From the NCBI GenBank assembly GCA_965216785.1, contig OZ244197.1, positions 1,568,001 to 1,632,000 of the forward strand: a stretch of DNA of 64,000 nucleotides, given 5' to 3'. The DNA is from Thermodesulfobacteriota bacterium. GTDB lineage: Bacteria; Desulfobacterota_D; UBA1144; Nemesobacterales; UBA2774. This document shows, piece after piece, positions 31,186-50,944 of this stretch. A program made the translations under genes and the position numbers. Every line of letters starts with the position of its first letter. Position 1 is the first letter of the stretch. The notes beneath the pieces were generated by a model, which worked only from the letters and a program-made list of their open reading frames with translations, was not told the DNA's origin and did no database searches.

Positions 31186-31249
31186 TGAGCATTCATGGTA
31201 TCTCTCGCTTATTCTTGTTTAATTATATGTTTTTTGGTATATAAGAATA

Positions 31250-33730: not shown

Positions 33731-33931
33731 ATGTTAAAAAAGAAGAAACTGCTCTCCTTAGCGGAAGTAGCTGAGATTTATTCTTTTTCCCTTCTGACCC
33801 TTAGAAGATGGTCTGCAGAAAGACGCTTCCCACTTTATAAGGTGTCAAACAGAATACGTGTTTCACCGACCGAGTTTGAGGCATGGTTAAGTAAATCAAA
33901 AGTAGAGCCAAAAGATAGGAGGAAAATATGA
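33731..33931 (+). CDS. Excisionase-like helix-turn-helix protein
   Basis: LLSLAEVAEI..TLRRW....FP.YKV..RIRV pattern; overlaps primase start (ATGA). Confidence 0.88.
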   Translation: MLKKKKLLSLAEVAEIYSFSLLTLRRWSAERRFPLYKVSNRIRVSPTEFEAWLSKSKVEPKDRRKI

Positions 33932-36351
33932 AATATAAAAAAAGGCTCAGCAGTGAACTGAGCCTCAAAACAATATCAGATAAACAATTAGAATTTATAT
34001 TATCACGTAAAGCGAAGCGTTTCAAAAATTTATTTAAAGGTAGGGAAGATGCCTGGGGATTAATGATAGGCAATAAGTATATTTCTAAAAGTGGTGAGTT
34101 GACTGACTTGCAATACAGGAAGCATTTAGAAGGTAGAGAGTCACTTGGCATATACCCCTTGAAAGAAGACGGAACATGTAACTTTTCTTGCGTTGACCTT
34201 GACTTCAGTGATGACCCTGATCCGAAAGAGCGAGCGGAAAAGGAAGCCATAAGAATACACGAATCACTATTAAATATCGGTTTTGATCCTATGTTCGAAC
34301 GTAGTAAGTCGGGACTGATTCACATCTGGCAGTTGTTCAAGGAACCCGTATCGGCCTTAAAAGTAAGAGCTGTTCTCAGGAATATCTTGGAGAAGCTCAG
34401 TCTTAATGTCAGGAATGGCCAGGTGGAGATATTTCCTAAACAGGATTCTTTAGAGCCTGGTAAACCTGGGAATTTTATTAATCTTCCTTATTTCGGCCAG
34501 AATACAGTAATGCGAAGAGTCATGCTTAAGACTCCTGACTTTACTCCTATATCATTAAGTGAGTTTCTTAAAAGAGCTGAGAGAAGCAGGATTCCAAAAG
34601 AGACCTTGGATATAGCTTATAATAAGTTATGCGAGGAGCAGGTTCTCAGCAAAGCAGACATAAATAAGAGAGTCGTAGATATACTCTCTACCTATTGGTC
34701 TGAGGGGCAAAGACAAGACTTAACCTTATATACTTCTGGATTTATGGTAAAAGAAGGATTTACCTTGGAACAGGTACAAGAGATTATCTTAGAAGTAGCC
34801 CATAGAGCCGGAGACACAGATATTGAAGAAAGAATAAATGCTATTAAGAGCACTTTTGAAAAGGCAAAAAAAGGGCAAGATATAAAAGGTTACGAGGGTT
34901 TAAAAGAAAAACTTAGCTCTCAGGATTTACAAACCATGTGCTCTTTATTCCAGTCAGAGCAAACTGAAGAAGAGCCTAAGAATAAGAAGTATAAGGCGGT
35001 GTTCCCCGGACTGGTTGATATAGTTGAAGATAAGGGCAAGGTAGTTTTTTTGGTTAAAGAGGATAGCAAGCTAATATTAAAAACTCATGTTGAGGTAAAT
35101 GGGGAAACTTATTACCCTCCACCAAGAGACTCATTACCTTTTTTAACCTTACCAAGGGGTGATGAAGTATTAAAACACTACTGTGCCGATACCGATACGC
35201 AATTATATGAAGATTTAAGGTCTTATCATGTAGGCATTTCAGAACTTCCTAATGATATGTTTTACGATTTACTGGTAGCGTGGGACTTCCACACTTATCT
35301 CTTCGATTTGTCTCAGTATTCTCCTATCATCTGGCTCTACGCAGTCCCTGAACGTGGTAAGAGTCGTACCGGTAAAGGTTGCATTAACGTTGCCTACAGA
35401 GGTATTCATATAGAGACACTGAGAGAGGCCCATTTATTTAGGTTTGCTGACAACTTAAATGCGACTTTATTTATTGACGTTATGGACCTTTGGCGAAAAG
35501 CAGAAAAAGAGAATTCAGTAGACATAATGCTGCATAGATTTGAAAAAGGCCCGAAGGTTCCAAGGGTTCTATACCCTGAAAGAGGGCCGTTCAAGGATAC
35601 AGTATTTTACGATACTTATGGGGCTACAATAGTTGCCACCAATATGCCTGTACATGAGATTATGGAGACACGTTCACTCATGATTACAATGCCAGAGGCG
35701 AATAAAAAATACGAGAATGATATAACACCTGAGTCAGCATTATCACTAAAAGAGCGACTGGTGGCCTTCCGTGCTAGACACTTAGGAAATACGCTTCCTG
35801 ATGTTGTGGTACCAACTAGTGGAAGGCTAAGTGTTATACTCAAGCCCCTGTTTCAAGTTATAAAGCTTATAAAGCCTGAAAAAGAGAAAACTCTATCAAG
35901 GCTCACGCGGCAACTGCAATCCAGTAGAAAAGCCGAACTCTCGGAAAGTAACGCAGCTAGCATAATAAGAGTTATTGTTGCTGAACTGGGTAGGGTTAAT
36001 AATGCTTGGCTCCCATTAAAGGTAATTACAGATATATATAACAACCTGTATGCTGGTAATGATAAATACACATATAGGAAAATGGGTCAAGAGCTTAGCG
36101 CACTTGGTTTCAAACAACAGAGTGGCACCAAAAAGAAGACCAATAGGGGAGTATCTATTAAGTTGGACATACCTATGATTATAAAATTGAGCATTAAGTA
36201 CGGTGTCCCATTCAGCTTAAAACAAGTACGTGGAAACAAACGTCTCAATCGTCGCAAAGGTCACTCGGCTAATAATAACAGTAACTCTAAGGACGATGTT
36301 TCTAGTGGTCTTACGTTAGAAGATATGAAAAGGTCACTAGAACAACACTGA
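33928..36351 (+). CDS. AEP primase (TOTE-type) fused to PriCT-like and P-loop-like domains; element replication protein
   Basis: FKGRED, GIYPL, CVDLD, ERSKSG..HIW, EIFPKQ, GNFINLP; EGQRQD; PERGKS. Confidence 0.82.
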   Translation: MKYKKRLSSELSLKTISDKQLEFILSRKAKRFKNLFKGREDAWGLMIGNKYISKSGELTDLQYRKHLEGRESLGIYPLKEDGTCNFSCVDLDFSDDPDPKERAEKEAIRIHESLLNIGFDPMFERSKSGLIHIWQLFKEPVSALKVRAVLRNILEKLSLNVRNGQVEIFPKQDSLEPGKPGNFINLPYFGQNTVMRRVMLKTPDFTPISLSEFLKRAERSRIPKETLDIAYNKLCEEQVLSKADINKRVVDILSTYWSEGQRQDLTLYTSGFMVKEGFTLEQVQEIILEVAHRAGDTDIEERINAIKSTFEKAKKGQDIKGYEGLKEKLSSQDLQTMCSLFQSEQTEEEPKNKKYKAVFPGLVDIVEDKGKVVFLVKEDSKLILKTHVEVNGETYYPPPRDSLPFLTLPRGDEVLKHYCADTDTQLYEDLRSYHVGISELPNDMFYDLLVAWDFHTYLFDLSQYSPIIWLYAVPERGKSRTGKGCINVAYRGIHIETLREAHLFRFADNLNATLFIDVMDLWRKAEKENSVDIMLHRFEKGPKVPRVLYPERGPFKDTVFYDTYGATIVATNMPVHEIMETRSLMITMPEANKKYENDITPESALSLKERLVAFRARHLGNTLPDVVVPTSGRLSVILKPLFQVIKLIKPEKEKTLSRLTRQLQSSRKAELSESNAASIIRVIVAELGRVNNAWLPLKVITDIYNNLYAGNDKYTYRKMGQELSALGFKQQSGTKKKTNRGVSIKLDIPMIIKLSIKYGVPFSLKQVRGNKRLNRRKGHSANNNSNSKDDVSSGLTLEDMKRSLEQH

Positions 36352-36403: not shown

Positions 36404-36454
36404 TAGAACGTAGGTATAGGCAAGTTAAAGCGAAAAAAAGAGGTAGAGTAGAAA

Positions 36455-36976
36455 ATTACTACTATAAACACTCAGAGGGACGTAATAAAAACGATAGCAC
36501 TGCTGGCACAGAATAAGCTCGACCCTGAGACTTTATCTAAAGCCGAGCAGAGCCTTCTCATCGAATACTTAAGGTTTGAGGAAAACCTTACTATTAGTAC
36601 GATAGCGGCTCTATTGAACATTCATAGAGACACTGTGAGAAGCAGAATAAAGAAAGCGGACGAGGCTATGAGGACTAGGCTAATAGCCAGAGGTTTTGAC
36701 GCTTGGGACGTCATATCTGAGCTGATGCGGGTGAAGAGGGTAGTGCAGTCTAAGGCAGCCAAAAAAGGCGACTGGGGCTTAGTATGGCGGACAGAGATGG
36801 ATACAATAGACAAGCTTATATCACTCGGTTTAATTAAGCAGTACGACCCTCTTTCTGCGTCTCAGGAGGACGATTTAAAAGGTATAGACGCTAAGACCCT
36901 TCGGAAGAAATATGAGGAAGCCAAGACAAAAGAACAGAATAAAACGCCTGGAGTTAATGCTAAAAATAGAGCCTAA
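36455..36976 (+). CDS. HTH protein, possibly terminase-small-subunit-like; true start probably upstream of 36614
   Basis: Frame open from 36452; LTISTIAALLNIHRDTVRSRIK HTH spans the TTG called by the ORF track; GAGGT upstream of ATT 36455. Confidence 0.6.
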   Translation: MTTINTQRDVIKTIALLAQNKLDPETLSKAEQSLLIEYLRFEENLTISTIAALLNIHRDTVRSRIKKADEAMRTRLIARGFDAWDVISELMRVKRVVQSKAAKKGDWGLVWRTEMDTIDKLISLGLIKQYDPLSASQEDDLKGIDAKTLRKKYEEAKTKEQNKTPGVNAKNRA

Positions 36977-37129
36977 GAACTTTAGGTTTTCGAGATAGCT
37001 GGCCCGGCATAAACTGACTACCACTACATAACAAAAATCAGATTTCCACTTATAGTATGCCGAATATTCTTACGAGCGTGCTCACAATATAGAATATATA
37101 AGTTGTATTATCCTGCCCTAATATAACTC

Positions 37130-37162
37130 TCAGAGCTCATACAGGCCCGTAGAGACGATTTT
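37130..37162. repeat. 33-bp exact direct repeat (copy 1), core of a ~75 bp imperfect repeat
   Basis: TCAGAGCTCATACAGGCCCGTAGAGACGATTTT also at 44620-44652. Confidence 0.93.
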
Positions 37163-37213
37163 ATAATGTGTCCCTGGGGTTTCCTTTTGTCAAGCTCATC
37201 CGCGTCTACAAAT

Positions 37214-37253
37214 AAAAACGCTCAGCCAACCACAGTGGATTAACTGAGCGTTT
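37214..37253 (-). terminator. Intrinsic terminator
   Basis: AAACGCTCAG...CTGAGCGTTT stem with T tract on the minus strand, downstream of the 37284 gene. Confidence 0.7.
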
Positions 37254-37283: not shown

Positions 37284-38648
37284 TTAAACCGTAGCGTACT
37301 TCTTCCTGATTGCGATAAATCCAACTAGCCCTAACACTCCCGCCATAGCTATAAGTCCCCATTCTGAAAGGGTAGGAATATTTCTTGCCGTCATCGGGTC
37401 GAGGCACAAAGCCAAGTAAATCTCTTCGAATCCATCAGGATTCCCACCGTTTATGTTAGACTGCGATTCAAAGGCTATGTAACTGCCGTTACCGCTTACT
37501 ACCGGGTCTTCGCTGTCATCATTATTCGTAGAGGTCACGGGGATTAGGACGCCGTTATTTGTATCAGTTACTATGATTGAACGGTTATTCTCGGGGTTGA
37601 CATTATCAAGGTTAAGCTCGGACTCTATTGCAACGATTGTGCCCGTGTAATCAATCGATGGGTCGACACTCCCTACTCCGAACCCGCCGTTGGTCAACTG
37701 TGTAAATGTGTTCGTATTGGTATCGAAAACAAAGGTCTGGTGATGCAGGCCCGGATTCCCGCCAGTAAAGTTTTCACGGGAACGAAACGCGATTCGAGTA
37801 CCATCCGCATTTACTGACGGTTGTCCGCTACCGAACCCAGTAGTGAATGTTATCTGCTGGATCGTCCCGTTTGTTACATCGGCGAGGTATATCTCTGAAT
37901 TGTGATCAGGATTTCCACCGTTAATATTCGCAGTAGATGTAAAAGCAACACAATTGCCTTCCGCGCTAATCGAAGGAGAAACACTATTGTATAATGTAGA
38001 GTCAGTTATCTGGGTAATTATCCCGGTTGCAGTATTGGCGATCCATATCTCATCTCTACCATCCGGGTTTCCGCCGTTAAAGTCATCGTCGGAACGAAAC
38101 GCTATTCGTGTACCATCTGCGCTTATAGATGGGTCTGTACTTCCTGATATAAACATGTTAAATGGACTGTCAGTTATTTGCGAAATTACTCCGGTTGTGG
38201 AATTGTAGAGCCATATCTCAAGGCTGCCATCCGGGTTTCCGCCGTTAAAGTCATCGTTAGAACGAAACGCAATAAGTGTGCCGTCTGCGTTTACAGAGGG
38301 AAAGCCGTTGTTTTGAAGGCCCGTTGTGTTTGTAATCTGAGTAATCACACCGGTTATTGAATTGACAAAGAATATCTCTCTATTATTGTCCGGGTTTCCG
38401 CCTGTATGGTCGGCGAGTGATGAGAACGCTACAATTTTCCCGTCGAAATTAATTGAAGCTTGTTCACTGCGTTCCTCGGGGTCGTTGGTCAGCTGTTTTA
38501 TCGCATGTCCTGGGCAGACGAGCTGCTGGGCTTGAGCGGAATGATTAGCAACAATAACTGATGATAAGAGTAAGATTGTTATTGCTAAAAAGAAAGATGC
38601 TTTTCGGCAAAACGTTAATTCTCCGGTAAATGTCTTTATGTATTCCAA
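37284..38648 (-). CDS. PD40/TolB-like beta-propeller protein with IPTL-CTERM
   Basis: Repeated PSVNADGT.IAFRS..NGGNP units; IPTLSEWGL-TM-RKK; TTG start with AGGAGG. Confidence 0.9.
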   Translation of the reverse strand: MEYIKTFTGELTFCRKASFFLAITILLLSSVIVANHSAQAQQLVCPGHAIKQLTNDPEERSEQASINFDGKIVAFSSLADHTGGNPDNNREIFFVNSITGVITQITNTTGLQNNGFPSVNADGTLIAFRSNDDFNGGNPDGSLEIWLYNSTTGVISQITDSPFNMFISGSTDPSISADGTRIAFRSDDDFNGGNPDGRDEIWIANTATGIITQITDSTLYNSVSPSISAEGNCVAFTSTANINGGNPDHNSEIYLADVTNGTIQQITFTTGFGSGQPSVNADGTRIAFRSRENFTGGNPGLHHQTFVFDTNTNTFTQLTNGGFGVGSVDPSIDYTGTIVAIESELNLDNVNPENNRSIIVTDTNNGVLIPVTSTNNDDSEDPVVSGNGSYIAFESQSNINGGNPDGFEEIYLALCLDPMTARNIPTLSEWGLIAMAGVLGLVGFIAIRKKYATV

Positions 38649-38809
38649 TGTCTCTACCCTCCTTAAAGATAAAAATCTAAGTCTAAAGATTACTATAGAT
38701 TGATAGAAATTAATAGATGGTAAATCGTATTTATATGAGAGTTATTGACAAATCCACTGACATAGCTCCTGGTAAATAATCTGGATGTGACGTAAGTTGG
38801 TGAGATTAC

Positions 38810-38858
38810 TGGAGCCGACGATCGGAATTGAACCGATTACCTGCTCATTACGAGTGAG
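38810..38858 (-). pseudogene. 3' half of tRNA-Thr(CGT): orphan att-site remnant
   Basis: Minus strand reads CTCACTCGTAATGAGCAGGTAATCGGTTCAATTCCGATCGTCGGCTCCA; no D-arm or 5' acceptor strand. Confidence 0.88.
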
Positions 38859-39107
38859 TTATTAGTTAACCACAGGTTATCTAACTAACTGTAATTACTT
38901 GATAATATTTCCAGCATATGACCTCATATTAACTAAATACCATTGGAAGGTTAGATAATGGTTAGACACTTTTAATGCACATGCCTCCTGCGTAAGTATC
39001 TAATCTATCATGTTGTTACTAAGGGTTCAATAGTAGAATACGGGTAGTAACTCTTACTAATTGATTAGGCCCAGCTATAGGTTGATAGATGGATTTTTAA
39101 CATGCTA

Positions 39108-39133
39108 ATGAGGGGAGCCGAAGCTCCCCTCAT
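39108..39133 (-). terminator. GGGAGC-TTCG-GCTCCC hairpin
   Basis: Perfect extended stem downstream of the C-type lectin gene; weak U tract. Confidence 0.65.
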
Positions 39134-39201
39134 ACACATTTGATCCTCCCTTTTTAGCTGTGGAGGAGGATAGAGGGAGGATAGGATGAAAACATTATTT
39201 T

Positions 39202-39810
39202 CTATGCGGTTACTTTTCTTCTACGGATAGCTATTAGACCGATTATCCCTAATACACCAGCCATTACAATCAAGCCCCATTCACTGATCGTTGGGATAGG
39301 TCTGGGCGCCAGCACAAATGAAGGCTCAAATTCAATAATACATCCGTTTGTGTCAAAACAACCCTGATCGTTCCAACCATCTCCATCCATTTCAAGGCAA
39401 TTTTCACAGCCATCTTCACCTTCGCAGCCAGCATCATTGGGTTCATCTTCATTCCACGCGGTAAAATCAAAGGGTTCACCGGTGATCCATTCCCAATCTT
39501 CGTCTGGTTCAGCTGCACCTTCCGCCTGTATGCCACCCAACCAACCATCTCCGCAGTCAAGGTCATTAGTAATAAATTGCTGTTCCTGGTCATTATTTAC
39601 TGTTGCAAGATGGCCCTGCATAGTCATAAACACTTGTTGAGAAGCAAAATCTCTGGCATCAAACCAGTCGCGATCACAATCTATATAGCATTGATAATAA
39701 TGACCATTAACTGGATTAAATTCCGGTGGTGGAACACCATTAGCACTTGATGTCATAGGGAGGCTAATAAAAAGAAATAATAAAAAGCAACTAGTAGTAA
39801 AAGTCTGCAT
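39202..39810 (-). CDS. C-type lectin-like domain protein with IPTL-CTERM
   Basis: NGHYY, GHLATV, WLGG, WITGEP, EPND, WND.C; IPTISEWGL-TM-RRRK. Confidence 0.9.
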   Translation of the reverse strand: MQTFTTSCFLLFLFISLPMTSSANGVPPPEFNPVNGHYYQCYIDCDRDWFDARDFASQQVFMTMQGHLATVNNDQEQQFITNDLDCGDGWLGGIQAEGAAEPDEDWEWITGEPFDFTAWNEDEPNDAGCEGEDGCENCLEMDGDGWNDQGCFDTNGCIIEFEPSFVLAPRPIPTISEWGLIVMAGVLGIIGLIAIRRRKVTA

Positions 39811-40079
39811 CTTATATCCTCCTCTAACTTAAATGTTAAAAATTTGAATTTACTTTTTTTGACAGCTTGTAGAGTTATTGAATTTTTAGGTTGTACATTT
39901 AGAATTTGAAGATTACTTACACTTAAACCCTGATTGTCATAATGAGCAGCTTCTAGTTACTATAGTCGCATCTAATCAACAGTAGTAATCGACCTCCTTT
40001 AAGGCTTAACAGTAATATGCATTATACAATAAACAGAAACAAATGTATACCTAGTCTAAGGCTGGATTAAGAGATGATT

Positions 40080-40165
40080 TGTACTGCACCCCTTTTGTTA
40101 AGCCCGGTTTAAGTTGGATTTATGGATAATGAAATTAAACAAAAAAGGGAGCCGAAGCTCCCTTT
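40080..40165. repeat. 3'-end module: IS3-like terminal sequence + UUCG terminator (copy 1)
   Basis: TGTACTGCACCCCTTTTGTTAAG...AAAAAAGGGAGCCGAAGCTCCC; similar at 46608-46696 and 47566-47650. Confidence 0.8.
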
Positions 40166-40199
40166 GGTATTCAATTTTACTGTTACAGTTAGTTTCAGA

Positions 40200-41534
40200 T
40201 TAAGCTGTTGCTTTTCTTCTTCGGAGAGCTAGTAAGCCAATAATCCCTAATACTCCCGCCATCGCTATAAGCCCCCACTCTGAAAGCGTTGGGATGTTCC
40301 TCGCTGTCATTGGATCGAGGCAGGTGGCTACGTATATCTGATCGGGAGTTTGATCAGGGTTCCCGCCGTTTATGTTTGAGGTTGACTCAAATGCGATACG
40401 CGTGCCGTCCGCATTGATTGATGGCCGCTCACTAAAGCCCCCGCCAGAAGTTATATTAGTCACTGAGGTGGTAACCGAGTTTGTCGAATCGAATACCCAT
40501 ATCTGATTGAATCCGCCGGGGTTCTGGCCGTTTATGTTTCCGTTGGACCTGAATGCGACACGCGTGCCGGGCGCATCAATTGTCGGGTCGTTAACATTTC
40601 CTGGTTCCGTTACCTCAGTAATCATTCCGGCAGTTGTATCAAAAATCACAATCTGATTACCCGGGCCAATGTTTCTCCTAAATGCGATTCTCATACCGTC
40701 ACCGTTTATTGACGGGTCGGTATTAAAGGAAGACCCCGTCGTAAACGTTATCTGGGTAAATGTTGCGGTCGTAATATCGAAAAGAAAGATTTCCAGGTTT
40801 CCGTCGGGGTTTCCCCCTGTAATATTTGCAGTGGACCGAAAGGCAATACGCGTTCCGTCTCCGCTTAATTGAGGATCGTTGTTGCTCCCCGTCACCGTAT
40901 CCGTTACCTGTGTAATAACACCTGTTGCCGTATCGACGAAGTATACCTCAGTGTTGAAATCAGGGTTTCCACCGTTAATGTTCCCGTTTGAGCGAAATGC
41001 GATACGCGTGCCGCCCGAGTCTATTGATGCACCGCCTGTTGACCCCGAAGGACCAGACGTAAATTGGGTAAAGGTCGAGGTCGTCGTGTCGAACATGAAG
41101 ATTTGAGGTCTCAGGATTCCGTTACCACCCGTAAAGTTCGCACTTGACTGAAATGCGATACGCGTGCCGTCGCCGTTTATTGACGGTTGCCTGCTGGTCT
41201 CCGCACTTTCTGTAATCTGCGTAATAACTTTAGTCTTTGTGTTGGCAAGGAATATCTCGTTATTCATAAGAGGGTTGTCCCCTGTCAGGTCTGCACGGGA
41301 TTCAAAAGCGACGAAGCCTCCGTCTGCGTTTATCGAAGGCTCAATACTATTTCCCGAGTCTGCATCCGTTATCTGCTGTATAAAACGGGGGTTGCAAAAG
41401 AGCTGCTGCGCTTGCGCACTTTGACTGAGAATTAAGAATGAACAAACGAAGAAAAGTGTTAAAGATAAAAAGCTTAAAGCTATCTGAGAATGCCGGGATA
41501 AGGTCTTTCCGACGGCCGGGTTTGTATATTCCAT
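40200..41534 (-). CDS. PD40/TolB-like beta-propeller protein with IPTL-CTERM
   Basis: PSINGDGTRIAF repeats; IPTLSEWGL-TM-RRRK. Confidence 0.9.
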   Translation of the reverse strand: MEYTNPAVGKTLSRHSQIALSFLSLTLFFVCSFLILSQSAQAQQLFCNPRFIQQITDADSGNSIEPSINADGGFVAFESRADLTGDNPLMNNEIFLANTKTKVITQITESAETSRQPSINGDGTRIAFQSSANFTGGNGILRPQIFMFDTTTSTFTQFTSGPSGSTGGASIDSGGTRIAFRSNGNINGGNPDFNTEVYFVDTATGVITQVTDTVTGSNNDPQLSGDGTRIAFRSTANITGGNPDGNLEIFLFDITTATFTQITFTTGSSFNTDPSINGDGMRIAFRRNIGPGNQIVIFDTTAGMITEVTEPGNVNDPTIDAPGTRVAFRSNGNINGQNPGGFNQIWVFDSTNSVTTSVTNITSGGGFSERPSINADGTRIAFESTSNINGGNPDQTPDQIYVATCLDPMTARNIPTLSEWGLIAMAGVLGIIGLLALRRRKATA

Positions 41535-41691
41535 AACCCCTTCCTCCTTTAGGAATAAATGATTGGTTCTATTCTACAATATTTTTAAAGTAATCAAAAG
41601 AGTATTGCTTAACTTATCCCATTTTATTAAATACATCCTCTGTGCTTATATTTATTCTGTATTCTAGAAATGAATCTGTATAAATTAGTGA

Positions 41692-41708
41692 TATTGTGTA
41701 CATAACGT
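41692..41708 (+). repeat. Res-like repeated motif, copy A
   Basis: TATTGTGTACATAACGT; exact at 44232, variants at 44802, 46405, 46530. Confidence 0.75.
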
Positions 41709-41954
41709 AAAGATGGTGTGTAATTAAACATATGATGGTAATTAGTTGAGATTATTGAGAATATATGACTTTAAAAGAGAGCAGTGCACAAGCATAGTGA
41801 TATAAATAATTACTAGTCACTTGGTGTAATGATATTGAGTCACTTTTTCAACATCTGGTAGTTTCCATGTTTTGTCAAATAACGACTTCTCAGGCCTATA
41901 CAAACTGTTAATCAGAAAGAAGTCTTCTCCAGTAAGTAGCCAATTTGATTACTT

Positions 41955-43028
41955 TCACCCTCCATTATTGGGTTTGAGAGGAATCCCATTATCGTAACTA
42001 ATGTCCCCGTCAAGATATTTTTTACCAGGAGGTGCCTTATCACCGGGGACTCGCTCCTTTTCCACATAATGTCTGCCATCGTACACATGAGTAACATATG
42101 TCCGGGGAGCTCCGCCACCCGATTCTAACCGCACAATGTTGTTCCATCCCGATGTTCTCTCGTCAGAGACAATGACCGGTAAACGGCTTATGGGAAAGTT
42201 ATCAACTAATTCGTAACCTTCTTGGCTTGGAGTAAAAAGCATTAGACTACAGCCGCCTGTACCGCAGAATATTGAGCCCAAGAGGTAGACAAAGACTTCT
42301 TGGGCTCCATCACCGTTTAGATCAACCCGAGTGTAAACGTAACGCGCTGTGATTCCGTTACCAATATCCATCATCTCTTGATTATAGTCAGGAGACTCTC
42401 TAATTATAGCTGCCTCAATAACTGAGTCGGGCTCTGTCTGTAAGTTTCTTTGGTCGTCATGTGGTTCCCACACATAAATGCCGCCGTCTGCCATCAAACT
42501 AAGGTAGAGCTTACCATCTTTTAATAAGTAAGAGCGTACATATTGGGTATGAGTCGAAATTTGCTCATCCAGTCTCGGAGCGGGGCAGAGCGCATTTGTG
42601 GTCGCAAGCTTCCCAAATTCAAATCGACCGCTTGTGCCGTCAGGACCAGCTTGGGACGACCATGTTCCATTGGCTTGATTACAGTCAAGCATCATGTTGA
42701 CAGCCCCGTCAGCATTAAGTTGCATGGTAAACTTGGAAGAATCTTCTGGTCGTATCGTGTCCACTGAGTCATCCATTGACTGAAACTCTAGCAGGCGCCA
42801 TTTGGTTCCAGCGAGCGATTCTACGACACCGGTTTCAGAATCAGCAGTTTTATCCTTGTCCGACACGGCCTCAGTTGATTGAGTATCAGATTGTGTTTGA
42901 GGTTCATCACCGGACTGGCTGCACCCTGTGAACATGAGCAAACTTACTAAAAACATAACTACAATATAAAGGCACGTAGCTGAATTATATTTAAGATTCT
43001 TATTTACCACTGATTTAACTCGTTTCAC
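41955..43028 (-). CDS. META-domain lipoprotein
   Basis: Lipobox FTGC; LAGTKWRL, DCNQ..G, T.ALCP; C-terminal DLNGDG..CGTGGC domain. Confidence 0.85.
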   Translation of the reverse strand: MKRVKSVVNKNLKYNSATCLYIVVMFLVSLLMFTGCSQSGDEPQTQSDTQSTEAVSDKDKTADSETGVVESLAGTKWRLLEFQSMDDSVDTIRPEDSSKFTMQLNADGAVNMMLDCNQANGTWSSQAGPDGTSGRFEFGKLATTNALCPAPRLDEQISTHTQYVRSYLLKDGKLYLSLMADGGIYVWEPHDDQRNLQTEPDSVIEAAIIRESPDYNQEMMDIGNGITARYVYTRVDLNGDGAQEVFVYLLGSIFCGTGGCSLMLFTPSQEGYELVDNFPISRLPVIVSDERTSGWNNIVRLESGGGAPRTYVTHVYDGRHYVEKERVPGDKAPPGKKYLDGDISYDNGIPLKPNNGG

Positions 43029-43121
43029 AAAATGCAGAAATCAGCAAAGTCTAAATTCTATTGAGTAAATTGCACTCTGCCTGCCAATAGAAATGACTCT
43101 GCTGATTTCTCAGTATCTTTA

Positions 43122-44147
43122 TCAACCGCCGTAAATTACTGCTTCGGGGATTTCATAACGCTCGTTTCCGGCATTTATCATATACAAGTCAGATTCTTTT
43201 TTAGATTCAAAATCCATGTTGCCGTCTGCTTGAGAAAGATCAGCGCTTACAGCGTTTCCGTTCTCAAAGAAAATAGCCCGCTTTCTTCCATCCGGTAGTG
43301 TGACTGTTACTGTTGCTGTTCCATTACCTTCTCTTGTCACACCGAATGGACACTGACCCATCGGCTGTCCTTTGGACTGTGCACAGGGGATATCTCCTGT
43401 GGCATCATATATATCCTGCCCGGCAAGCTCAGCACTCTGAGCCTCTGATGCCGAGTCAGGCGCGGAGAATGTAAGTTTCCATTTACCCCATTTAAATACT
43501 TCGTTATCTCCCTTGTCTATCATAGAAGCAATATTTTTAGACATACCCTCAGGTGTTTCCACTTGATAGCCATTGCTTTGTTCCATAAAGCTATAGGTCT
43601 GCCCGTTGCTAAAATTTATCACGTACTTATTGGTGTTTTGTGAAGCATGCTGTTCTATTTTACAGGTGCCTTTGTATTTATTGTTGTCGCTCTTTTTGTT
43701 ATACAAAGTGCATTGCCCGTCAACCGATGTTACAACAGGCTCAAACTCGGCAGTTTCACTATTCTTACAGTCAAATTCGGGTGCGTAAACAATCGACTGA
43801 TACCTGCCGTCTGCTGTACGGATCGTAACGCATTTTCCTGTGCTGTTTTCTGTCCAATAACTATAGGAGCTGTCACCGGACTTATCGGTTTTTACGTAAG
43901 TGTAGCCCCTCTGCTTAAGTCCCATCTCAGCCTGACCAGCTTTTGCTCCAACAAGGTCAGATAACCCTTCGACCGGGTCCTGGGCATATACAGGCTGTAC
44001 AGTTTGTGAAATAACGATTAAGAAAACGATAATGAAAAGACTAGATAAAAGGTAGCGCATAGCATTCCCTCCTGAACATTTTATTTTTGACCAACCCGCC
44101 ATAAACAATTGAATAATTATTCTGATTAAAGTTGTAGTATCAAGCAT
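43122..44147 (-). CDS. Exported hypothetical protein (likely start MRYLL at ~44060)
   Basis: Signal peptide; C-terminal CPFGVTREG..ERYEIPEAVIYGG domain. Confidence 0.7.
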   Translation of the reverse strand: MLDTTTLIRIIIQLFMAGWSKIKCSGGNAMRYLLSSLFIIVFLIVISQTVQPVYAQDPVEGLSDLVGAKAGQAEMGLKQRGYTYVKTDKSGDSSYSYWTENSTGKCVTIRTADGRYQSIVYAPEFDCKNSETAEFEPVVTSVDGQCTLYNKKSDNNKYKGTCKIEQHASQNTNKYVINFSNGQTYSFMEQSNGYQVETPEGMSKNIASMIDKGDNEVFKWGKWKLTFSAPDSASEAQSAELAGQDIYDATGDIPCAQSKGQPMGQCPFGVTREGNGTATVTVTLPDGRKRAIFFENGNAVSADLSQADGNMDFESKKESDLYMINAGNERYEIPEAVIYGG

Positions 44148-44231
44148 TATTTTGACTATGGCAGAGGTATATCAGACTTCGAAATTTGATAGTCATCTTG
44201 ACCCTGGAATCAAACTTGATATTATGGGTGG

Positions 44232-44248
44232 TATTGTGTACATAACGT
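44232..44248 (+). repeat. Res-like repeated motif, copy E
   Basis: TATTGTGTACATAACGT; near-inverted TTATGCACAA at ~44282. Confidence 0.75.
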
Positions 44249-44311
44249 GAGCGTGTTGAGGGCTTAATCCGGGTGCTGTAATTATGCACAATTATTGAGT
44301 TTTCTGGCAAT

Positions 44312-44333
44312 AAAAAAGGGAGCCGAAGCTCCC
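44312..44333 (-). terminator. UUCG hairpin terminator
   Basis: GGGAGCTTCGGCTCCCTTTTTT on the minus strand. Confidence 0.8.
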
Positions 44334-44373
44334 ATTTGCGTTTTCAATGAGTACTGTATAGGTTAGTTTCCGA

Positions 44374-44490
44374 TTAAGCTGTAACTTTCTGCTGTGGATA
44401 ACTATTAAACCTATAATTCTTAATACTCCTACCATGGCTAACAGTCTCCTTTCGATAAGGGTTGGGATGGGTGTAACAAAATCAGCTCCT
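44374..44490 (-). pseudogene. Orphan, decayed IPTL-CTERM tail
   Basis: Reads TPIPTLIERRLLAMVGVLRIIGLIVIHSRK, followed by the standard terminator, with no intact passenger domain. Confidence 0.75.
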
Positions 44491-44619
44491 TTTATTACAG
44501 CTATAATCACTGAATCATTGGCAGCTGGCTCTGTACACAACTTACAAAGTCCTTGAGCATCCTCCTTACTAAGAATATAGGACATAAAATATATATGTAA
44601 TCCTGCTATAATATACCTT

Positions 44620-44652
44620 TCAGAGCTCATACAGGCCCGTAGAGACGATTTT
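44620..44652. repeat. 33-bp exact direct repeat (copy 2)
   Basis: Identical to 37130-37162. Confidence 0.93.
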
Positions 44653-45239
44653 TTTAGGTGCCCCTGAGCTTACCCCGGTTATTTGATTTAAAGAGCCTCT
44701 GTAACTAGGCTCTTAATATTTTACCGCTTCCCTCTTGCTAAGCATGTCTTCTGCGTTTATATGTTTTCTGAATAATAAAAAGAAGGGATATAAAATTCCT
44801 TTATTATGTCTACAATGTAAGCTTGTCCGGCTCTTAATTGGATTACCGTGATGATTAACATATGAGATGAGGGAATTTCTCGATATTGTCTTATAGTTTC
44901 AGACGTTCTGTTTCCTAGTTCATATTTAGCAACCTCTGTAATGTTAAGTATAATCAAGATCCTTTCATACGGTATAGAAAATGTCACCTCGTCACAACAT
45001 ATTCAGACTCTCTTATATAAAAATAATTTTAATGGAAGAACAATCTGCTTTGGATTGTAATGAGTATGCTGCTAGGTGGCTCAACAGCTAAACATCTGGA
45101 TCCGTATTCCCAGTCCTATTTACTTTTATAAGATTTCAATTATTATGACTCTCAACATTAAAAACAAATGTTCACATTTAGTGGTCTTGCATGGGAAGGA
45201 TTCGCAGTGATGGACAAAAATTAAAAGAGAAGCCGTAAT

Positions 45240-46175
45240 ATGCGTCATTTTAATAATATTCTTTATGTCGGGCATGGTACCTCAGATGAAACCGAAGGCC
45301 TCAAGCAGGCGCTGAGTCTGGCCCGTAATAATCAAGCCCCGCTGAAAGTTCTTATCGTGTGCCCGGATTTCCCCACAGATATGCCTGATTATAAAATGAA
45401 GTACGAAGAATCGCTTCTGGAGCAGGCAAACGCCTCCATCCACTCTACCAAAAAGGCGATAAAAATTGCCGAAGAAGACGTAGAGCTTTCTGTAGAGCTG
45501 GAAAGCGATAAAAATCCCTCTATACGCATTATTCAGCATGTGTTGCGTAACAGTCACGATCTGGTTATTAAAGAAGCCGAACCCCTTGAGGATGGTGGTT
45601 TTAAGGCTATCGACATGAGCCTGCTACGCAAATGCCCGTGCCCGGTGTGGCTGTGCCGAGCTATCAAACAAACCCGACAGCAAATCCATGTGGCGGTGGC
45701 CATTGATCCTGCGAGTAAGGAACCGGCAGTGCAAGCACTCTCAAAGAGAATGCTGGAGCTCTCTAGTTCACTCGCAGATAGTTGCAGCGGGGAATTGAGC
45801 ATTATTTCCTGTTGGGACTATGAATTCGAGAATTATTTGCGTGGCAGTATGTGGATAAAAATGTATGATCAGCAAATTACAGAAATTGTTATACAGGCAC
45901 AGAATAATCACAAGGCCGTTCTGGAAGCCTTGATCAAGGAATCAAGGATTTCAGGCATATACCATATACATCATCTTAGGGGCCGGGCTGAAGAATTGAT
46001 CCCATCATTTACGGAGAATAAGAAGGTCGATATCCTTGTAATGGGCACGGTGGCGCGTACCGGAATAAAGGGATTGTTGATTGGAAACACGGCGGAAAAT
46101 ATCGTACAGAAACTTTCCTGCTCGCTGATTGCGTTGAAGCCAAGCGGTTTTATCTCCCCGGTAAAGGCGTATTAG
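45240..46175 (+). CDS. Universal stress protein (tandem USP, UspE-like)
   Basis: HDLVIK, LLRKCPCPVW, VMGTVARTG..GLLIGNTAE motifs. Confidence 0.93.
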   Translation: MRHFNNILYVGHGTSDETEGLKQALSLARNNQAPLKVLIVCPDFPTDMPDYKMKYEESLLEQANASIHSTKKAIKIAEEDVELSVELESDKNPSIRIIQHVLRNSHDLVIKEAEPLEDGGFKAIDMSLLRKCPCPVWLCRAIKQTRQQIHVAVAIDPASKEPAVQALSKRMLELSSSLADSCSGELSIISCWDYEFENYLRGSMWIKMYDQQITEIVIQAQNNHKAVLEALIKESRISGIYHIHHLRGRAEELIPSFTENKKVDILVMGTVARTGIKGLLIGNTAENIVQKLSCSLIALKPSGFISPVKAY

Positions 46176-46383
46176 CACAAGGGAAGGTCTGAATGCAAGA
46201 GATGGAACCAGATCGTGTAGCGCAAAGCTGGCATAGCGAAACAGCGGATCATAGTTTGACAAGCCCCAGAAAACATGTCCACCTTTTAAATTATTAATAT
46301 TCATATAATCCTCTCTAATAAGTTGAGGCAAATCCATGCTACTCACCTTTTTTATAAGTCGTTTATGCATTTTAACACTAGAA

Positions 46384-46575
46384 AAGAACGGGTATTAGTC
46401 CCGTTATTGTGATTACAATGTAAGTGTGATTGGATCTAGCTTAAGGTACTGTGTTTGTTGGTTGTTTTGATGCACTTCTGCGCTTATATGTGTTCACAAT
46501 TGTAGTAAAGAAGGGGTATAAATGAGTGGTATTGTGAACATAACGTAAGTGTGATTGGCTCTAGCTTAAGTTGCT
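46384..46575 (+). repeat. Two tandem copies (125-bp period) of the res-like motif (D, C)
   Basis: TATTGTGA..A.AA.GTAAGTGTGATTGG.TCTAGCTTAAG at 46405 and 46530; inverted TGTTCACAAT/ATTGTGAACA at 46491/46531. Confidence 0.8.
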
Positions 46576-46607
46576 GATATGACTGACTATTATAAGGGTG
46601 CTACTGT

Positions 46608-46696
46608 TGTACTGCTCCCCTTTCGTCAAGATAGATTTAAGTTAAGATTATCAATAAAAGAACTACAATAAAAAAGGGAACCGAAGCTCCCTTTTT
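46608..46696. repeat. 3'-end module: IS3-like end + terminator (copy 2)
   Basis: TGTACTGCTCCCCTTTCGTCAAG...AAAAAAGGGAACCGAAGCTCCC. Confidence 0.78.
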
Positions 46697-46722
46697 GTGT
46701 ATTCATTTGGTTCTGTATGAGA

Positions 46723-47451
46723 TTAAATTGTAACCCTTCTTCCATGGATAGCCAATAAACCTATTATCCCTAGTACTAACGCCACGGCTATAAGACCCCA
46801 TTCGGATAGGGTAGGGATAGGTCTAGCAGACCCACATGTACCGAATGAGAGCTCATATAGCAGTTCAAGTTGCGGTTGTCCTGATTCTCCGAGTTCGATG
46901 CGTGTTATTGGACCGCCAACTGATAATACACCCAAAAACGTACCGTTAACAGGTGTCACATTCACGGTGGTTGAGCCTAGAAAGATGTTTCCTGCACCAC
47001 CACCGAATACCTGCACTTCTACGGTCGAATTAACGTCAGAAGAAACAATCACCATTCCAAAAGTGTTTACAACTTCAGTAAATGTAATCACCGTCTTATC
47101 TGTGCCGACAGAAGCCCCTACGGCAACATTTGTTAATCCACTAAAGGGTGGTGTTAACACCAGTATAGGATTACCAGGATCGGTAGATCCACTGAGTGAA
47201 AACCCGGGAATAAGGGCTCCCGGTGAGTAACAGATATTATTTGTAAAGCTGTTAAAAGGACCTGGGCAAGATTCGACATCGTTAGGCGGGACGTTGGTGT
47301 TTTCGAAGCCTTCAACTGCGAGATTATCGCAAGTATTATTAAATAACCCCTCGTCATCAAAGAATTGCAGAGCCTGCGCACTGGCCATTGTAGACGTAAC
47401 TAGAATTAAAGCTATAAATAGCACTAATGTTTTTAATATTGTCTTATACAT
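46723..47451 (-). CDS. Secreted protein with IPTL-CTERM
   Basis: Signal peptide; IPTLSEWGL-TM-RR; RBS AGGAGG. Confidence 0.88.
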   Translation of the reverse strand: MYKTILKTLVLFIALILVTSTMASAQALQFFDDEGLFNNTCDNLAVEGFENTNVPPNDVESCPGPFNSFTNNICYSPGALIPGFSLSGSTDPGNPILVLTPPFSGLTNVAVGASVGTDKTVITFTEVVNTFGMVIVSSDVNSTVEVQVFGGGAGNIFLGSTTVNVTPVNGTFLGVLSVGGPITRIELGESGQPQLELLYELSFGTCGSARPIPTLSEWGLIAVALVLGIIGLLAIHGRRVTI

Positions 47452-47565
47452 TAAAAGTTCCTCCTTTAAACAATCACGCTTGACGATTATATAATAATTG
47501 CAAAGAATTGTATAGCTAGTCTGTTAAACCCACGAAAATCAGTCCATCTTAGAAAGTTATAAATT

Positions 47566-47650
47566 TGTACTGTACCCCTATGTCAAGACAGGTTTTAGTT
47601 GAATTTAATACCGAAGAACTAAACTAAAAAGGGAGCCGAAGCTCCCCTTT
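47566..47650. repeat. 3'-end module: IS3-like end + terminator (copy 3)
   Basis: TGTACTGTACCCCTATGTCAAGACAGG...AAAAAGGGAGCCGAAGCTCCC. Confidence 0.78.
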
Positions 47651-47673
47651 GTTCTGTTTCCGATAGTCTCTGA

Positions 47674-49035
47674 TTAAGCTGTTGCGTACTTTTTCCTGAT
47701 TGCTATAAATCCTACGAGTCCTAATAAACCAGCCATTACTATGAGACCCCATTCTGATAGGGTTGGTATGGGAAGTGGTCCAGTGTCGCGGCATACTGCC
47801 AAGAATATTTGCTCTCTTGCATCAGGGTTCCCGCCGTTGATGTTCGCCTGTGACTCAAAGGCGATACGCGTGCCGTCTCCGTTTATTGAAGCGTCTTCGC
47901 TCTCTGTATTTCCCGGTCCTGATTCATTGGTTACACGGGTGAAAGTTCCCGAGCTAATATCAAAAACGTATACTTCCTCATCATTATCAGGATTAGGGCC
48001 GATAATATTTGCAGTTGACTCAAAGGCGATGCGTGCGCCGTTTGCGCTTAATGAAGGGTCACGGCTATTACCCGATGTCGTATTTGTTATCTGTGTGATT
48101 GTACCTGTAGTTACATTGGCAAGGTATATTTCTTGATTACCTTCCGGATTGCCCCCGTTGATGTTACCGCGCGACGAGAACGCTATAAGCGTGCCGTCAG
48201 CGTTAATTGAAGGTTGAAATGAGTCGCCATCCGATTGAAAAGTTATTTGAGTAAATGTGCCTGTTGTTGTATCGAAGAGGTATATCTGTGATATATTGAG
48301 CGGGTTACCTCCATTGATATTTGCTTCAGACCTAAAGGCTATACGCGTTCCATCCGCGTTTACAGAAGGGGTTCTATTTGAAAAACCGCCAATTGTGTCG
48401 GTTATCTGGGTGAATGTACCTGTCGTTACGTTGAAAAGGAATATCTCCATGTTTCCGTCAGGATTAGCGCCTGTTATGTCTGCCTCGGACCCAAAAGCTA
48501 TAATTGTCCCGGATGCATTAGCTGAAGGTGACGCAACACCATCATTCGGGTCTGTAATATTTGTAATTTGAGTAATTACCCCGGTCGTATTATTGACAAG
48601 GAATATCTGATCTATATTTTGAGGGTTATTCCCGGTGAGGTTAGAATCTGATCTAAATACAGTAACTGTGCCATCCCCGCTTATACAAGGACTGTCGCTG
48701 TTAACTGATCCGTCAGTCAACTGGGTTATAGCACCTGTAATAGCATTGACAAGGAATATCTGCCGGATGTTGTTAGGGTTATCGCCCGTAAAATTTGCCG
48801 ATGAAATAAAGACAACGCTAATCCCGGCGTCGTCAATAGAAGCATCGTCACTATTCTGAAAATCATCAGTTAGTTGCTGTATAGCACGCTCAGGGCAGAC
48901 GAGGGGTTGTGCCATTGCGGAATTAGTTGTAATTAGAAACGATGCAATTAGAAACAGCAGTAATATGAAAAGGTTAATAACTTTTTTGGAGTGCGGATAT
49001 TCTTCGTTTGCTTCAATTATTCTTATAGATTTCAT
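47674..49035 (-). CDS. PD40/TolB-like beta-propeller protein with IPTL-CTERM
   Basis: PSINADGT.IAF repeats; IPTLSEWGL-TM-RKK. Confidence 0.9.
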   Translation of the reverse strand: MKSIRIIEANEEYPHSKKVINLFILLLFLIASFLITTNSAMAQPLVCPERAIQQLTDDFQNSDDASIDDAGISVVFISSANFTGDNPNNIRQIFLVNAITGAITQLTDGSVNSDSPCISGDGTVTVFRSDSNLTGNNPQNIDQIFLVNNTTGVITQITNITDPNDGVASPSANASGTIIAFGSEADITGANPDGNMEIFLFNVTTGTFTQITDTIGGFSNRTPSVNADGTRIAFRSEANINGGNPLNISQIYLFDTTTGTFTQITFQSDGDSFQPSINADGTLIAFSSRGNINGGNPEGNQEIYLANVTTGTITQITNTTSGNSRDPSLSANGARIAFESTANIIGPNPDNDEEVYVFDISSGTFTRVTNESGPGNTESEDASINGDGTRIAFESQANINGGNPDAREQIFLAVCRDTGPLPIPTLSEWGLIVMAGLLGLVGFIAIRKKYATA

Positions 49036-49546: not shown

Positions 49547-49741
49547 ATGACTAAAAGATTCAGACCCAATTTGATACACATATATCTCCATCCTGATGAG
49601 GACAAGTTCCTCAAGAACTACGCCGAGAAGAACTACATGACAGCTTCTGAGCTTATCAGAGGCTGGATTCACGAAGTTATGAAAATAGAAGGGGTCGAGA
49701 TTACAGAACCAAGAAATCCTGAAAGGAAAAAGGGGAGGTGA
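49547..49741 (+). CDS. Ribbon-helix-helix-like regulator
   Basis: IHIYL beta strand + EDKFLKNYAEK + TASELIR; overlaps integrase start. Confidence 0.72.
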   Translation: MTKRFRPNLIHIYLHPDEDKFLKNYAEKNYMTASELIRGWIHEVMKIEGVEITEPRNPERKKGR

Positions 49742-50838
49742 GTATTATGGCGGTTTTTAAAAGAAAGGTTAAGGATAAAGACGGCAAAGTCACAGAATAC
49801 TGGTATTACGAACTACCACTACCAGGTGGAAGGAAGCTAAAAAAGAGTGTGGGTAAGGTGGGCAGAGCGACTAAAGCTATGGCTCGTCAGGAAGAAGATC
49901 AGAAATGGAAAGAGATTAAGAACGGGCAGTTAGGCAATGTAGAAATACCGACATTGAATGATTTCAAAGACGAATATTTAAACTACAAGAGGGAAGTTAG
50001 TAAAAAGAGGTCATGGAAACGGGATGAAGAACTGTTAAGGCCGCTTTGTAAGCTCTTTGGTACTAAAAAATTGTCTGAGATTACTATACAGGATCTTGAA
50101 GAGTTTAAGCAGATAAGGCTTAAGGAAGTAAGCTCAGCAACGGTTAACCGTTCACTGTCTGTACTGAGGCATCTCTTAAATCTGGCTAAGAGATGGGGGA
50201 AGTTCTACGGTGATAATCCAGTATCGATTGTCGGCTTGCTTGAAGAGCACAATAAGATAGAACGGGTTCTAACGCCAGAGGAAGAAAGAAGGCTGCTCAG
50301 TCAGGCTATTAACTACCTGAGACCTATATTATTCACTGCCCTTAATACAGGTATGAGAAGGGGCGAGATATTAAACTTAAAGTGGTCAGAAGTTGATTTG
50401 GAAGTAAACCTCATTACGGTTAATCAGACTAACTCGAAGAGTAAGAAAGAGAGAAGAGTGCCGATTAACTCACCAATGAGAACCATGCTGCTAGAATTAA
50501 AGCTTAAGTCGACGAACTCAGAATTTGTTTTCACAGATAATCAGGGCAATCCCATAAAGACAATAAGAACAGCTTTTGCTGCCGCGTGTAGGCGAGCAGG
50601 AATACCAGAGCTCAGGTTTCATGATTTAAGGCACACAGCGGGCACGAGAATGGTTGAGGCCGGGGCTAATATCGTAGCTATTAGCAAGATTCTCGGCCAT
50701 AGTGACATAAAGACAACTATGAGGTATGCTCACCCAGAAGAATCACTCAGAGAGGCTCTTGAATCATTGGCTAAATTCGGGGAAACTACTACCAATATCG
50801 CTACCAATGATATTGCCCATAACTCAGAAGTGACGTAA
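49738..50838 (+). CDS. int: Tyrosine recombinase/phage integrase
   Basis: TGMRRGE, K, FHDLRHT, LGHSD, TMRY catalytic motifs; next to tRNA att. Confidence 0.97.
   Translation: MSIMAVFKRKVKDKDGKVTEYWYYELPLPGGRKLKKSVGKVGRATKAMARQEEDQKWKEIKNGQLGNVEIPTLNDFKDEYLNYKREVSKKRSWKRDEELLRPLCKLFGTKKLSEITIQDLEEFKQIRLKEVSSATVNRSLSVLRHLLNLAKRWGKFYGDNPVSIVGLLEEHNKIERVLTPEEERRLLSQAINYLRPILFTALNTGMRRGEILNLKWSEVDLEVNLITVNQTNSKSKKERRVPINSPMRTMLLELKLKSTNSEFVFTDNQGNPIKTIRTAFAAACRRAGIPELRFHDLRHTAGTRMVEAGANIVAISKILGHSDIKTTMRYAHPEESLREALESLAKFGETTTNIATNDIAHNSEVT
50785..50807 (+). promoter_or_regulatory. Putative arm-type sites inside the int 3' end
   Basis: ACTACTACCAA-T-ATCGCTACCAA, matches 31163-31185. Confidence 0.72.
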
Positions 50839-50858
50839 CCTACTGTAATTATTACCAC

Positions 50859-50944
50859 GGAGGGCTGGCAGAACGGCTAATGCACCGGTCTTGAAAACCG
50901 GCGTCCTTACGGACTTGGGGGTTCGAATCCCTCGCCCTCCGCCA
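50859..50944 (+). tRNA. tRNA-Ser(TGA), intact, contains attR
   Basis: GGAGGGC/GCCCTCC acceptor, CCGGT-CTTGAAA-ACCGG anticodon arm, long variable arm, GTTCGAATC, encoded CCA. Confidence 0.98.

Follow-up and report, generated by a model that had tools for sequence, protein, structure and literature searches.

The question raised by the region 37284..49035 of the 64,000-nt stretch analysed here (the window; contig OZ244197.1, positions 1,568,001-1,632,000, assembly GCA_965216785.1) is how one short C-terminal sorting tail, IPTL-CTERM, comes to be carried by dissimilar proteins encoded side by side, and what part the surrounding genomic island plays in it. An earlier note, made from the letters of the window, had described the locus as a swappable library in which a satellite-like element joins different passengers to a common anchor and terminator. 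The region is an integrative element with attachment (att) repeats and a replication module, inserted at a tRNA-Ser gene, and the pairing of the tail with a terminator hairpin is genome- and family-wide and not specific to the island. The explanation that we hold, with modest confidence, to be the probable one is that the island is an integrative element of the cargo type, drawing on a gene pool which the whole family shares and whose members have a common, likely recombining 3' block.

The tail and its hairpin beyond the island

A motif scan kept 55 IPTL tails in the genome (Pfam gave 56 matches to IPTL-CTERM), 54 of them with a passenger of more than 60 residues, and the passengers comprise ten families and eight singletons. 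The GGGAGC-TTCG hairpin seen in the island was found behind 26 of the 55 tails, mostly outside islands, compared with 3 of 2,645 other open reading frames (ORFs). Chromosomal IPTL genes do share the 3' module, a point that the earlier note had raised. This stem is shared by every one of the 24 cUNCGg terminator hairpins detected in the genome. In a separate strict scan for perfect intrinsic terminators, which may undercount, such terminators were detected behind 24 of 54 IPTL genes and 15 of 2,646 other ORFs. Rfam returned tRNA matches only, together with sub-threshold matches to the 3' end of CrcZ.

The family comparison covered 33 genomes including the host genome, and, since these kin are not independent, no p-value is attached to the family-wide hairpin counts. 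Of 182 hairpin copies, 116 lie 95-125 nt behind [EQ]WG codons (93 of 153 without the host genome). The number of copies is far above chance, as the reversed hairpin pattern, used as a control, gave 3 matches against the 182 forward ones. A single exosortase H gene, xrtH, was located in the host genome (TIGR04177, 93.6 bits against a cut-off of 86 bits) beside its associated gene, which matches NF041730. It lies about 0.6 Mb from the window, in which, as previously noted, no exosortase was found. Tails and xrtH are either both present or both absent in 30 of 31 genomes; the one that deviates is an assembly of 91% completeness. The family names and this co-distribution suggest that XrtH acts on the IPTL tail in these genomes.

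That the island is the library is not supported, because 47 of the 55 tails lie outside the ten att-bounded tRNA islands of the genome, 13 other IPTL clusters exist and the pairing extends over the family. For the same reasons, and given a sister backbone in the relative G007 without any IPTL gene, the island as joining agent is not supported either. A dedicated integron-like library, whose own recombinase would excise, reorder and re-tail cassettes, could be seen in the fact that the island's five genes form the largest of the 14 clusters of at least two IPTL genes, all on one strand, and in the roughly threefold enrichment of tails in tRNA islands (8 observed, 2.7 expected). Same-strand genes separated by palindromic repeats are likewise a feature of integron arrays. 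Nevertheless, we judge this explanation very improbable. No IntI was found in the genome above the TIGR02249 cut-off (best 90 bits against 265), and a simple core search for attC, which is not a covariance model, yielded two isolated pairs and not one core behind each gene. Unlike integron cassettes, the island genes have terminator ends and ribosome-binding sites of their own. In addition, the att of the integrase is accounted for by tRNA-Ser, most copies of the module lie outside islands, the cargo of a sister element is different, and one arrangement was found in the source contigs. A shufflon was also rejected, as the modules are without exception direct repeats and not inverted sites, and every one belongs to a complete gene of its own. 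A REP/RAYT (repetitive extragenic palindrome and its associated transposase) system was rejected as well, no PF01797 Y1 transposase being found in G000 (92% complete).

Tails, passengers and insertion sequence ends

Tail identity is nearly the same for related and unrelated passengers (0.627 vs 0.624; 121 and 1,310 pairs, p 0.89). The claim that different passengers stand on a common anchor and terminator is upheld in that tails are largely decoupled from passengers, but joining by the island is not supported. One paralog pair, at genome 869682 and 2125164, shows what reads as a tail swap. The proteins are 89% identical, third-position differences amount to 4 of 66 just before the tail vs 14 of 32 within it (p 2e-5), and the divergence starts sharply at the first tail codon. 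Moreover, the tail and spacer of 869682 are 84% identical to those of island gene 40200 (89% for the spacer alone), the two passengers being unrelated. Among genes of other genera, in a non-random sample of 33 tails from fetched loci of relatives, 18 of 19 have a tail nearer to unrelated tails of their own genus than to the tail of their best passenger homolog in the host genome. The shared tail and terminator end likely serves as portable homology for gene gain, loss and re-tailing by ordinary recombination.

Several observations weigh against exchange of this block. No recombination event was observed, 29 of the 55 tails have no hairpin, and modules now share no more than 60-85% identity, which may mean that exchange is rare and lies far back. 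The tail tree, built on 90 alignment columns, is poorly resolved (35 of 51 branches open); it contains 29 passenger changes (minimum 9), with a mean of 32.9 and values as low in 6 of 200 for shuffled data, which suggests a slight co-descent of tails with passengers. Two island propellers have sister tails in a well-supported clade, as plain duplication predicts. The swap pair contains other divergent patches (79-81%) inside the passenger, and its junction is not unique. The likeness of tails within a genus may reflect codon bias or local selection by XrtH, given that amino-acid identity rises too. Finally, in the 20 loci discussed below where a hairpin is joined to an insertion sequence (IS) end, homology ends exactly at the tip and the flanks beyond it differ in 20 of 20, which fits a transposase as well as recombination.

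These points bring in an explanation without any module exchange, by duplication and divergence, in which tails would converge under XrtH selection and the hairpin would be kept unchanged to the letter, as a very stable terminator or as the binding site of a factor common to these mRNAs. Some paralog pairs do retain sister tails, and the hairpin variants behind tails consist of G-U wobbles, loop changes, one loop insertion and one inverted copy, with no two-sided compensatory change seen, while spacers and wobble positions have approached saturation. However, duplication would leave unexplained the non-coding spacers common to unrelated passengers, as between 869682 and island gene 40200, the sharp swap boundary and the orphan tails, and ten paralog families plus eight singletons cannot share one ancestral gene. 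We regard it as quite improbable.

A second set of repeats associates the block with IS3-family elements. Two intergenic repeats, RepA and RepB (25 and 21 copies), crowd the islands. RepA comprises the final codons of an IS3-family element together with its right inverted repeat. In G003, RepA forms the exact end of an intact element (HTH_Tnp_1, HTH_21, rve), beyond which come an IPTL gene, the hairpin and another RepA copy. OrfA/OrfB transposase genes bounded by RepA-matching terminal inverted repeats were found at the loci L013 and L046 and in the host's own copy (genome 1323501-1324640), and many RepB copies continue into a RepA-type end. RepA lies 66-80 nt behind 6 of the 55 tails (three in the island), compared with 5 of 2,645 other ORFs (p 2e-8). 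Hairpin and IS end form a block present in 22 copies in 12 of the 33 genomes and in three genera, with near-constant spacing. Among 20 block loci, a tail stands immediately upstream in 12 (orphan or truncated in two of these), no tail is in frame in 6, and upstream sequence is lacking for 2. By direct reading, the hairpin arms with their A and T tracts resemble IS subterminal sequence. Beyond what had been noted earlier, three of the island hairpins are followed by an IS3 right end.

The host's own copy (L025) is its only full-length IS3; it has a degenerate right tip, lies in a tRNA-Leu island and is a possible transposase source. At genome 1291692-1291778 and window 46590-46610, two IS ends meet in head-to-head orientation, or ~3 nt separate a right end from left-end-like sequence, as expected from IS3 junctions. 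With the identification of RepA as an IS3 end, a role as promoter or recombinase site was set aside. RepB as the site of three small tyrosine recombinases is not supported, as RepB lies within 1.5 kb of 0 of 7 recombinase loci from relatives. These three proteins (L034-L036; genome 870935-871561, 1163412-1164038 and 1289416-1290057), catalytic-domain-only, 208-213 aa long and 81-85% identical, are encoded near IS-end relics and have relatives in 6 of 100 other genomes.

The units might themselves be non-autonomous IS3-type elements, with tail, terminator and IS3 right end as the right arm, moved by a transposase in trans and stacked in islands. The arrangement behind the intact G003 copy, the 22 blocks at near-constant spacing and the differing flanks at all 20 tips would fit this. 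So would two units of relatives: in G010, an IPTL gene with its hairpin stands between a miniature IS and a right end, all within one 0.8-kb unit, and in G094 an orphan tail with the hairpin stands between a left and a right end, with a 4-bp direct repeat framing the whole. In the host genome, half a hairpin behind one IPTL gene directly adjoins an IS3 left end, and IS3-family members that target palindromes have been published (part of PMC1525189). However, the end accompanies only 6 of 55 tails, and left and right ends enclosing a passenger were found only in single units of G010, G094 and the host genome (1282092-1284204). The island units have right ends only, with no cognate left end upstream of their genes. 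A target duplication was found for 1 of about 6 candidate units, none of them in the island, and for neither of the two intact IS copies with both flanks. The tail and hairpin pair is present in six genomes without a RepA match (G004, G006, G011, G014, G015 and G017), and 6 of 18 readable blocks lack an in-frame tail. We consider it unlikely.

In the explanation that we prefer, block recombination in a shared gene pool, the proteins would be exported by an N-terminal signal, be processed by the one XrtH encoded on the chromosome, and end up as propellers and lectin-like proteins at the surface. A 150-220-bp block (tail, spacer, hairpin and sometimes the IS3 right end) would recombine between copies, yielding tail swaps, same-strand tandem arrays and orphan tails, and an IS3 transposase acting in trans might sometimes move or target the block ends. 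Island ends would recombine with each other, and the tRNA-Ser element would move the accumulated mosaic as one block. Recombination between island ends is suggested by the lectin gene, which, as a further addition to the earlier description, brings with it the att end of a tRNA-Thr island: a 49-bp 3' fragment of tRNA-Thr(CGT) is joined there to ~240 bp with 86% identity to the end of a tRNA-Thr island 1.07 Mb away, in which this 3' flank also belongs to an IPTL gene. This foreign att end indicates that the cargo was assembled from parts of other islands.

The integrative element at tRNA-Ser and its cargo

The element is 19.9 kb long and is bounded by a perfect 43-bp repeat copying the 5' half of tRNA-Ser(TGA) (Table 1). 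A tyrosine integrase, tRNA-derived att, an empty site in relatives, an excisionase and a primase identify it as an integrative element. The integrase and a small regulator occupy the right side, and the excisionase, the AEP primase, the terS-like helix-turn-helix (HTH) gene and the SRA-HNH gene the left. The HTH protein matched the terS family (E 1e-6), but sigma-70 region 4 was matched too, and no capsid match was obtained among 11 proteins scanned. The primase found no match among viral contigs; two distant GTDB contigs were matched. Taken by itself, the island is a cargo element of an ordinary type.

Table 1. Features of the tRNA-Ser element and its cargo (window coordinates).
Feature	Position	Strand	Basis
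Left att, 43-bp copy of tRNA-Ser(TGA) 5' half	30983..31025	+	100% identical to 50857-50899
Tandem 11-12-bp repeats, likely integrase arm sites	31163..31188; twin ~50785-50811	+	Function predicted from sequence
SRA-HNH protein, predicted type IV (modification-dependent) restriction enzyme	32622..33482	-	PF02182 + PF13391; weak PADLOC mREase_IV match
Excisionase-like HTH_17 protein	33731..33931	+	PF12728 above cut-off; phrog_66 E 1e-8
AEP primase-polymerase, long C-terminal region	33928..36351	+	PF22548, phrog_21866
HTH protein, weakly terS-like	36452..36976	+	phrog_141 E 1e-6, Sigma70_r4; start codon uncertain, frame open from 36452
75-bp repeat	37110..37184; second copy 44600-44674 (85%)	.	Sequence comparison
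Different, longer terminator hairpin behind first propeller gene	37217..37252 (limits approximate)	-	Folding
IPTL-CTERM beta-propeller 1	37284..38648	-	PF18203/TIGR04174 profiles
Captured tRNA-Thr(CGT) island end: 49-bp att fragment (38810-38858) + ~240 bp element end	38810..39098	-	48/49 tRNA identity; 86% to genome 2682317-2682606
Shared hairpin behind lectin gene	39113..39128	-	Sequence
IPTL-CTERM C-type lectin	39202..39810	-	PF00059; EPN, WND motifs
IS3-family right-end relic (RepA)	40080..40124	-	Repeat comparison
Shared hairpin behind propeller 2	40147..40162	-	Sequence
IPTL-CTERM beta-propeller 2	40200..41534	-	Profile + structure model
Long IS-end-associated repeat RepB	41651..41720; more at 44193-44278, 44761-44848, 46372-46451, 46488-46576	-	Repeat comparison
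META-domain secreted protein, non-IPTL cargo	41955..43028	-	Profile
341-aa predicted secreted protein, no family matched, non-IPTL cargo	43122..44147	-	Profile searches
Decayed orphan tail (44374-44468) + shared hairpin (44318-44333)	44318..44468	-	Sequence comparison
Universal stress protein (Usp), non-IPTL cargo	45240..46175	+	Profile
Shared hairpin (46676-46691) + IS3 right-end relic (46608-46651)	46608..46691	-	Sequence, repeats
IPTL-CTERM protein, predicted beta-sandwich like a carbohydrate-binding module (CBM)	46723..47451	-	pLDDT 90; best Foldseek matches CBM6/CBM4, E 4e-4 to 9e-4
Shared hairpin (47631-47646) + IS3 right-end relic (47566-47607)	47566..47646	-	Sequence, repeats
IPTL-CTERM beta-propeller 3	47674..49035	-	PF18203/TIGR04174 profiles
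Small predicted ribbon-helix-helix regulator	49547..49741	+	Weak matches; 57-72% identical copies precede related integrases in five relatives
Tyrosine integrase, catalytic motifs intact	49738..50838	+	Profile + sequence reading
Right att (50857-50899) within intact tRNA-Ser(TGA) (50859-50944)	50857..50944	+	tRNA scan + repeat comparison

The five intact IPTL-CTERM genes and the single orphan tail described earlier were recovered at the same limits; all five minus-strand ORFs score above the PF18203 cut-off and four of them above that of TIGR04174, and the orphan is real, if decayed. The proteins carry the C-terminal motif, hydrophobic helix and basic cluster of IPTL-CTERM/XrtH substrates, and, on hydropathy only, an N-terminal peak is present in four of the five, the lectin falling below the threshold. 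Three PD40/TolB-like propellers and one C-type lectin were corroborated by profile matches. The model of gene 40200 is a multi-blade beta-propeller like TolB (pLDDT 91.5), and the named homologs of the propeller come from 'Thermodesulfobacteriota bacterium' metagenome-assembled genomes and one Methylomirabilis; labels of this sort may point to a Ca. Dadabacteria-type host. Gene 46723, previously listed as of unknown fold, models as a beta-sandwich with weak CBM matches; all five of its best Foldseek matches at E <0.001 are proteins that bind carbohydrates, and the TM-scores are low. For the island proteins, a role as adhesin or lectin is accordingly only a prediction, and one published IPTL-CTERM protein is an S-layer protein (part of PMC8671808).

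Every unit has its own ribosome-binding site and a long upstream spacer, and four of the five intact units end in an identical terminator hairpin. The earlier statement of one hairpin per unit, five of six being common, holds for the five GGGAGC-TTCG copies and for the sixth, which is different and longer; it holds less well for the orphan tail, whose 3' region folds no better than shuffles (z -0.7), while the other five fold far better (z -3.2 to -7.1). The term array likewise needs qualification: the five genes are all on the minus strand, but the series is interrupted by the META protein, the 341-aa protein and the plus-strand Usp. Two more IPTL-CTERM genes, one of them a propeller paralog, lie in the window outside the island (3745-4929 and 5041-6363, minus strand), neither with the shared hairpin.

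At the left end of the island, the SRA-HNH nuclease is a likely anti-phage gene, alongside two low-GC ORFs without a known family. The 75-bp repeat occurs in the genome in two copies only, of which the first follows the terS-like gene at a distance of about 130 bp, and a search of 100 other genomes gave one weak 27-bp match and nothing else. The genome has four islands marked by 5' tRNA fragments, at tRNA-Pro(cgg), Leu(caa), Ser(tga) and Arg(cct); islands of this kind are rare, amounting to 159 of 3,919 (4%) in Islander according to the portion of PMC4383910 consulted.

Twenty regions from relatives were surveyed at the tRNA-Ser site. It is empty in six genomes (G001, G005, G008, G018, G094 and G097), one of them of the same genus, and a related integrase lies beside the tRNA in G093. 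G003 has at this site a 2-kb relic with a single unrelated IPTL gene and its hairpin, and G089 has 12 kb of non-IPTL cargo. In G002, G012 and G095 the 5' tRNA fragment is found at a contig end, and the remaining regions either hold a small number of additional genes or give no information. At the same tRNA, a metagenome contig encodes an 82% identical integrase; within the 6 kb of it available, four different ORFs and no tail were found. The G007 sister backbone is inserted at tRNA-Asn (AEP primase 46%, terS-like 60%, ribbon-helix-helix 69% and integrase 50% identical), with the terS-like partner behind the AEP gene, and regions with regulator and integrase in G003 and G013 contain two IPTL genes each. 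Cargo differs between species at this site and on sister elements, a point on which the earlier note is supported. Dense IPTL arrays were also met at L041 (G003:C13) and L042 (G018:C16), with 6 and 8 tails matched per ~20 kb and no integrase noticed within the stretches read.

Within the probable source sample, the contigs contain only one arrangement of the array, rare variants being dropped by contigs. The array is present in four sequencing runs, all from one sample, and three further runs have only short, low-depth pieces; no RNA run is among those listed for the stretch. The contigs of this sample tile the stretch with zero letter differences and a short gap at one repeat. No rearranged form was found in them, although contigs collapse the 43-bp att, and excision is neither shown nor excluded there. 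Contig depth in X1 is 59-73 inside the island vs 81-82 outside, and in X4 it is flat (289-309 vs 292-308). Other joints in the contigs have full-genome depth and 80% likeness, and were read as paralogous loci.

Relation to known systems and significance

Each ingredient of the locus is already known, namely many-to-one sorting tails, tRNA islands with a primase and solo IS ends. As in PEP-CTERM/EpsH (PMC1569441), many substrates correspond to one sortase and a short tail stands on unrelated secreted passengers; here, however, the tail is accompanied by a non-coding terminator and in some cases by an IS3 end. The sections of PMC1569441 consulted report that PEP-CTERM tails cluster by genome and describe the tail as an appended module with rapid gain and loss, and in that text the words terminator, recombination and mobile do not occur. 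A literature search found no report of a terminator or IS end tied to IPTL tails, and a term search in PMC3237569 and bioRxiv 2023.06.07.544157 returned no relevant passage on such an association.

The element resembles tycheposons and elements like phage-inducible chromosomal islands, as far as described in the accessible part of bioRxiv 10.1101/2020.12.28.424599, in its tyrosine integrase at a tRNA, ~40-bp att, excisionase, primase and weakly terS-like gene, as well as in the lack of capsid or conjugation genes seen, the variable cargo and the partial tRNAs scattered in islands. It differs in lineage, in that the duplicated piece is the tRNA 5' half and in its surface-protein cargo; the likeness is one of layout and gene content. 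Transposase-less IS ends beside passenger genes are also known from IS3-family solo inverted repeats, miniature inverted-repeat transposable elements and mobile insertion cassettes (PMC3129680, in part), and an IS end abutting a hairpin from the palindrome-targeting IS1397 and ISKpn1 (the portion of PMC1525189 already cited). In contrast to these elements, the ends found in the island are right ends only, all point the same way and are linked to a sorting tail and terminator; neither a left end nor a target duplication was found there.

How one short sorting tail reaches dozens of unrelated proteins has been described for PEP-CTERM without a DNA-level explanation in the literature examined. 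The terminator, spacers, orphan tails, swap junction and IS3 ends are DNA-level tracers that make the spread of the tail testable. They also show a way in which this little-studied lineage may vary its surface. A bolder version, which we think doubtful, would make the block a mobile anchor module: hairpin arms would mimic IS3 subterminal repeats, IS3 transposase and recombination would place the block behind new secreted-protein genes, turning them into XrtH substrates, and tRNA islands would collect and spread the products. If true, the anchor module would diversify the surface proteome by combining a sorting signal with an IS end that has been domesticated.

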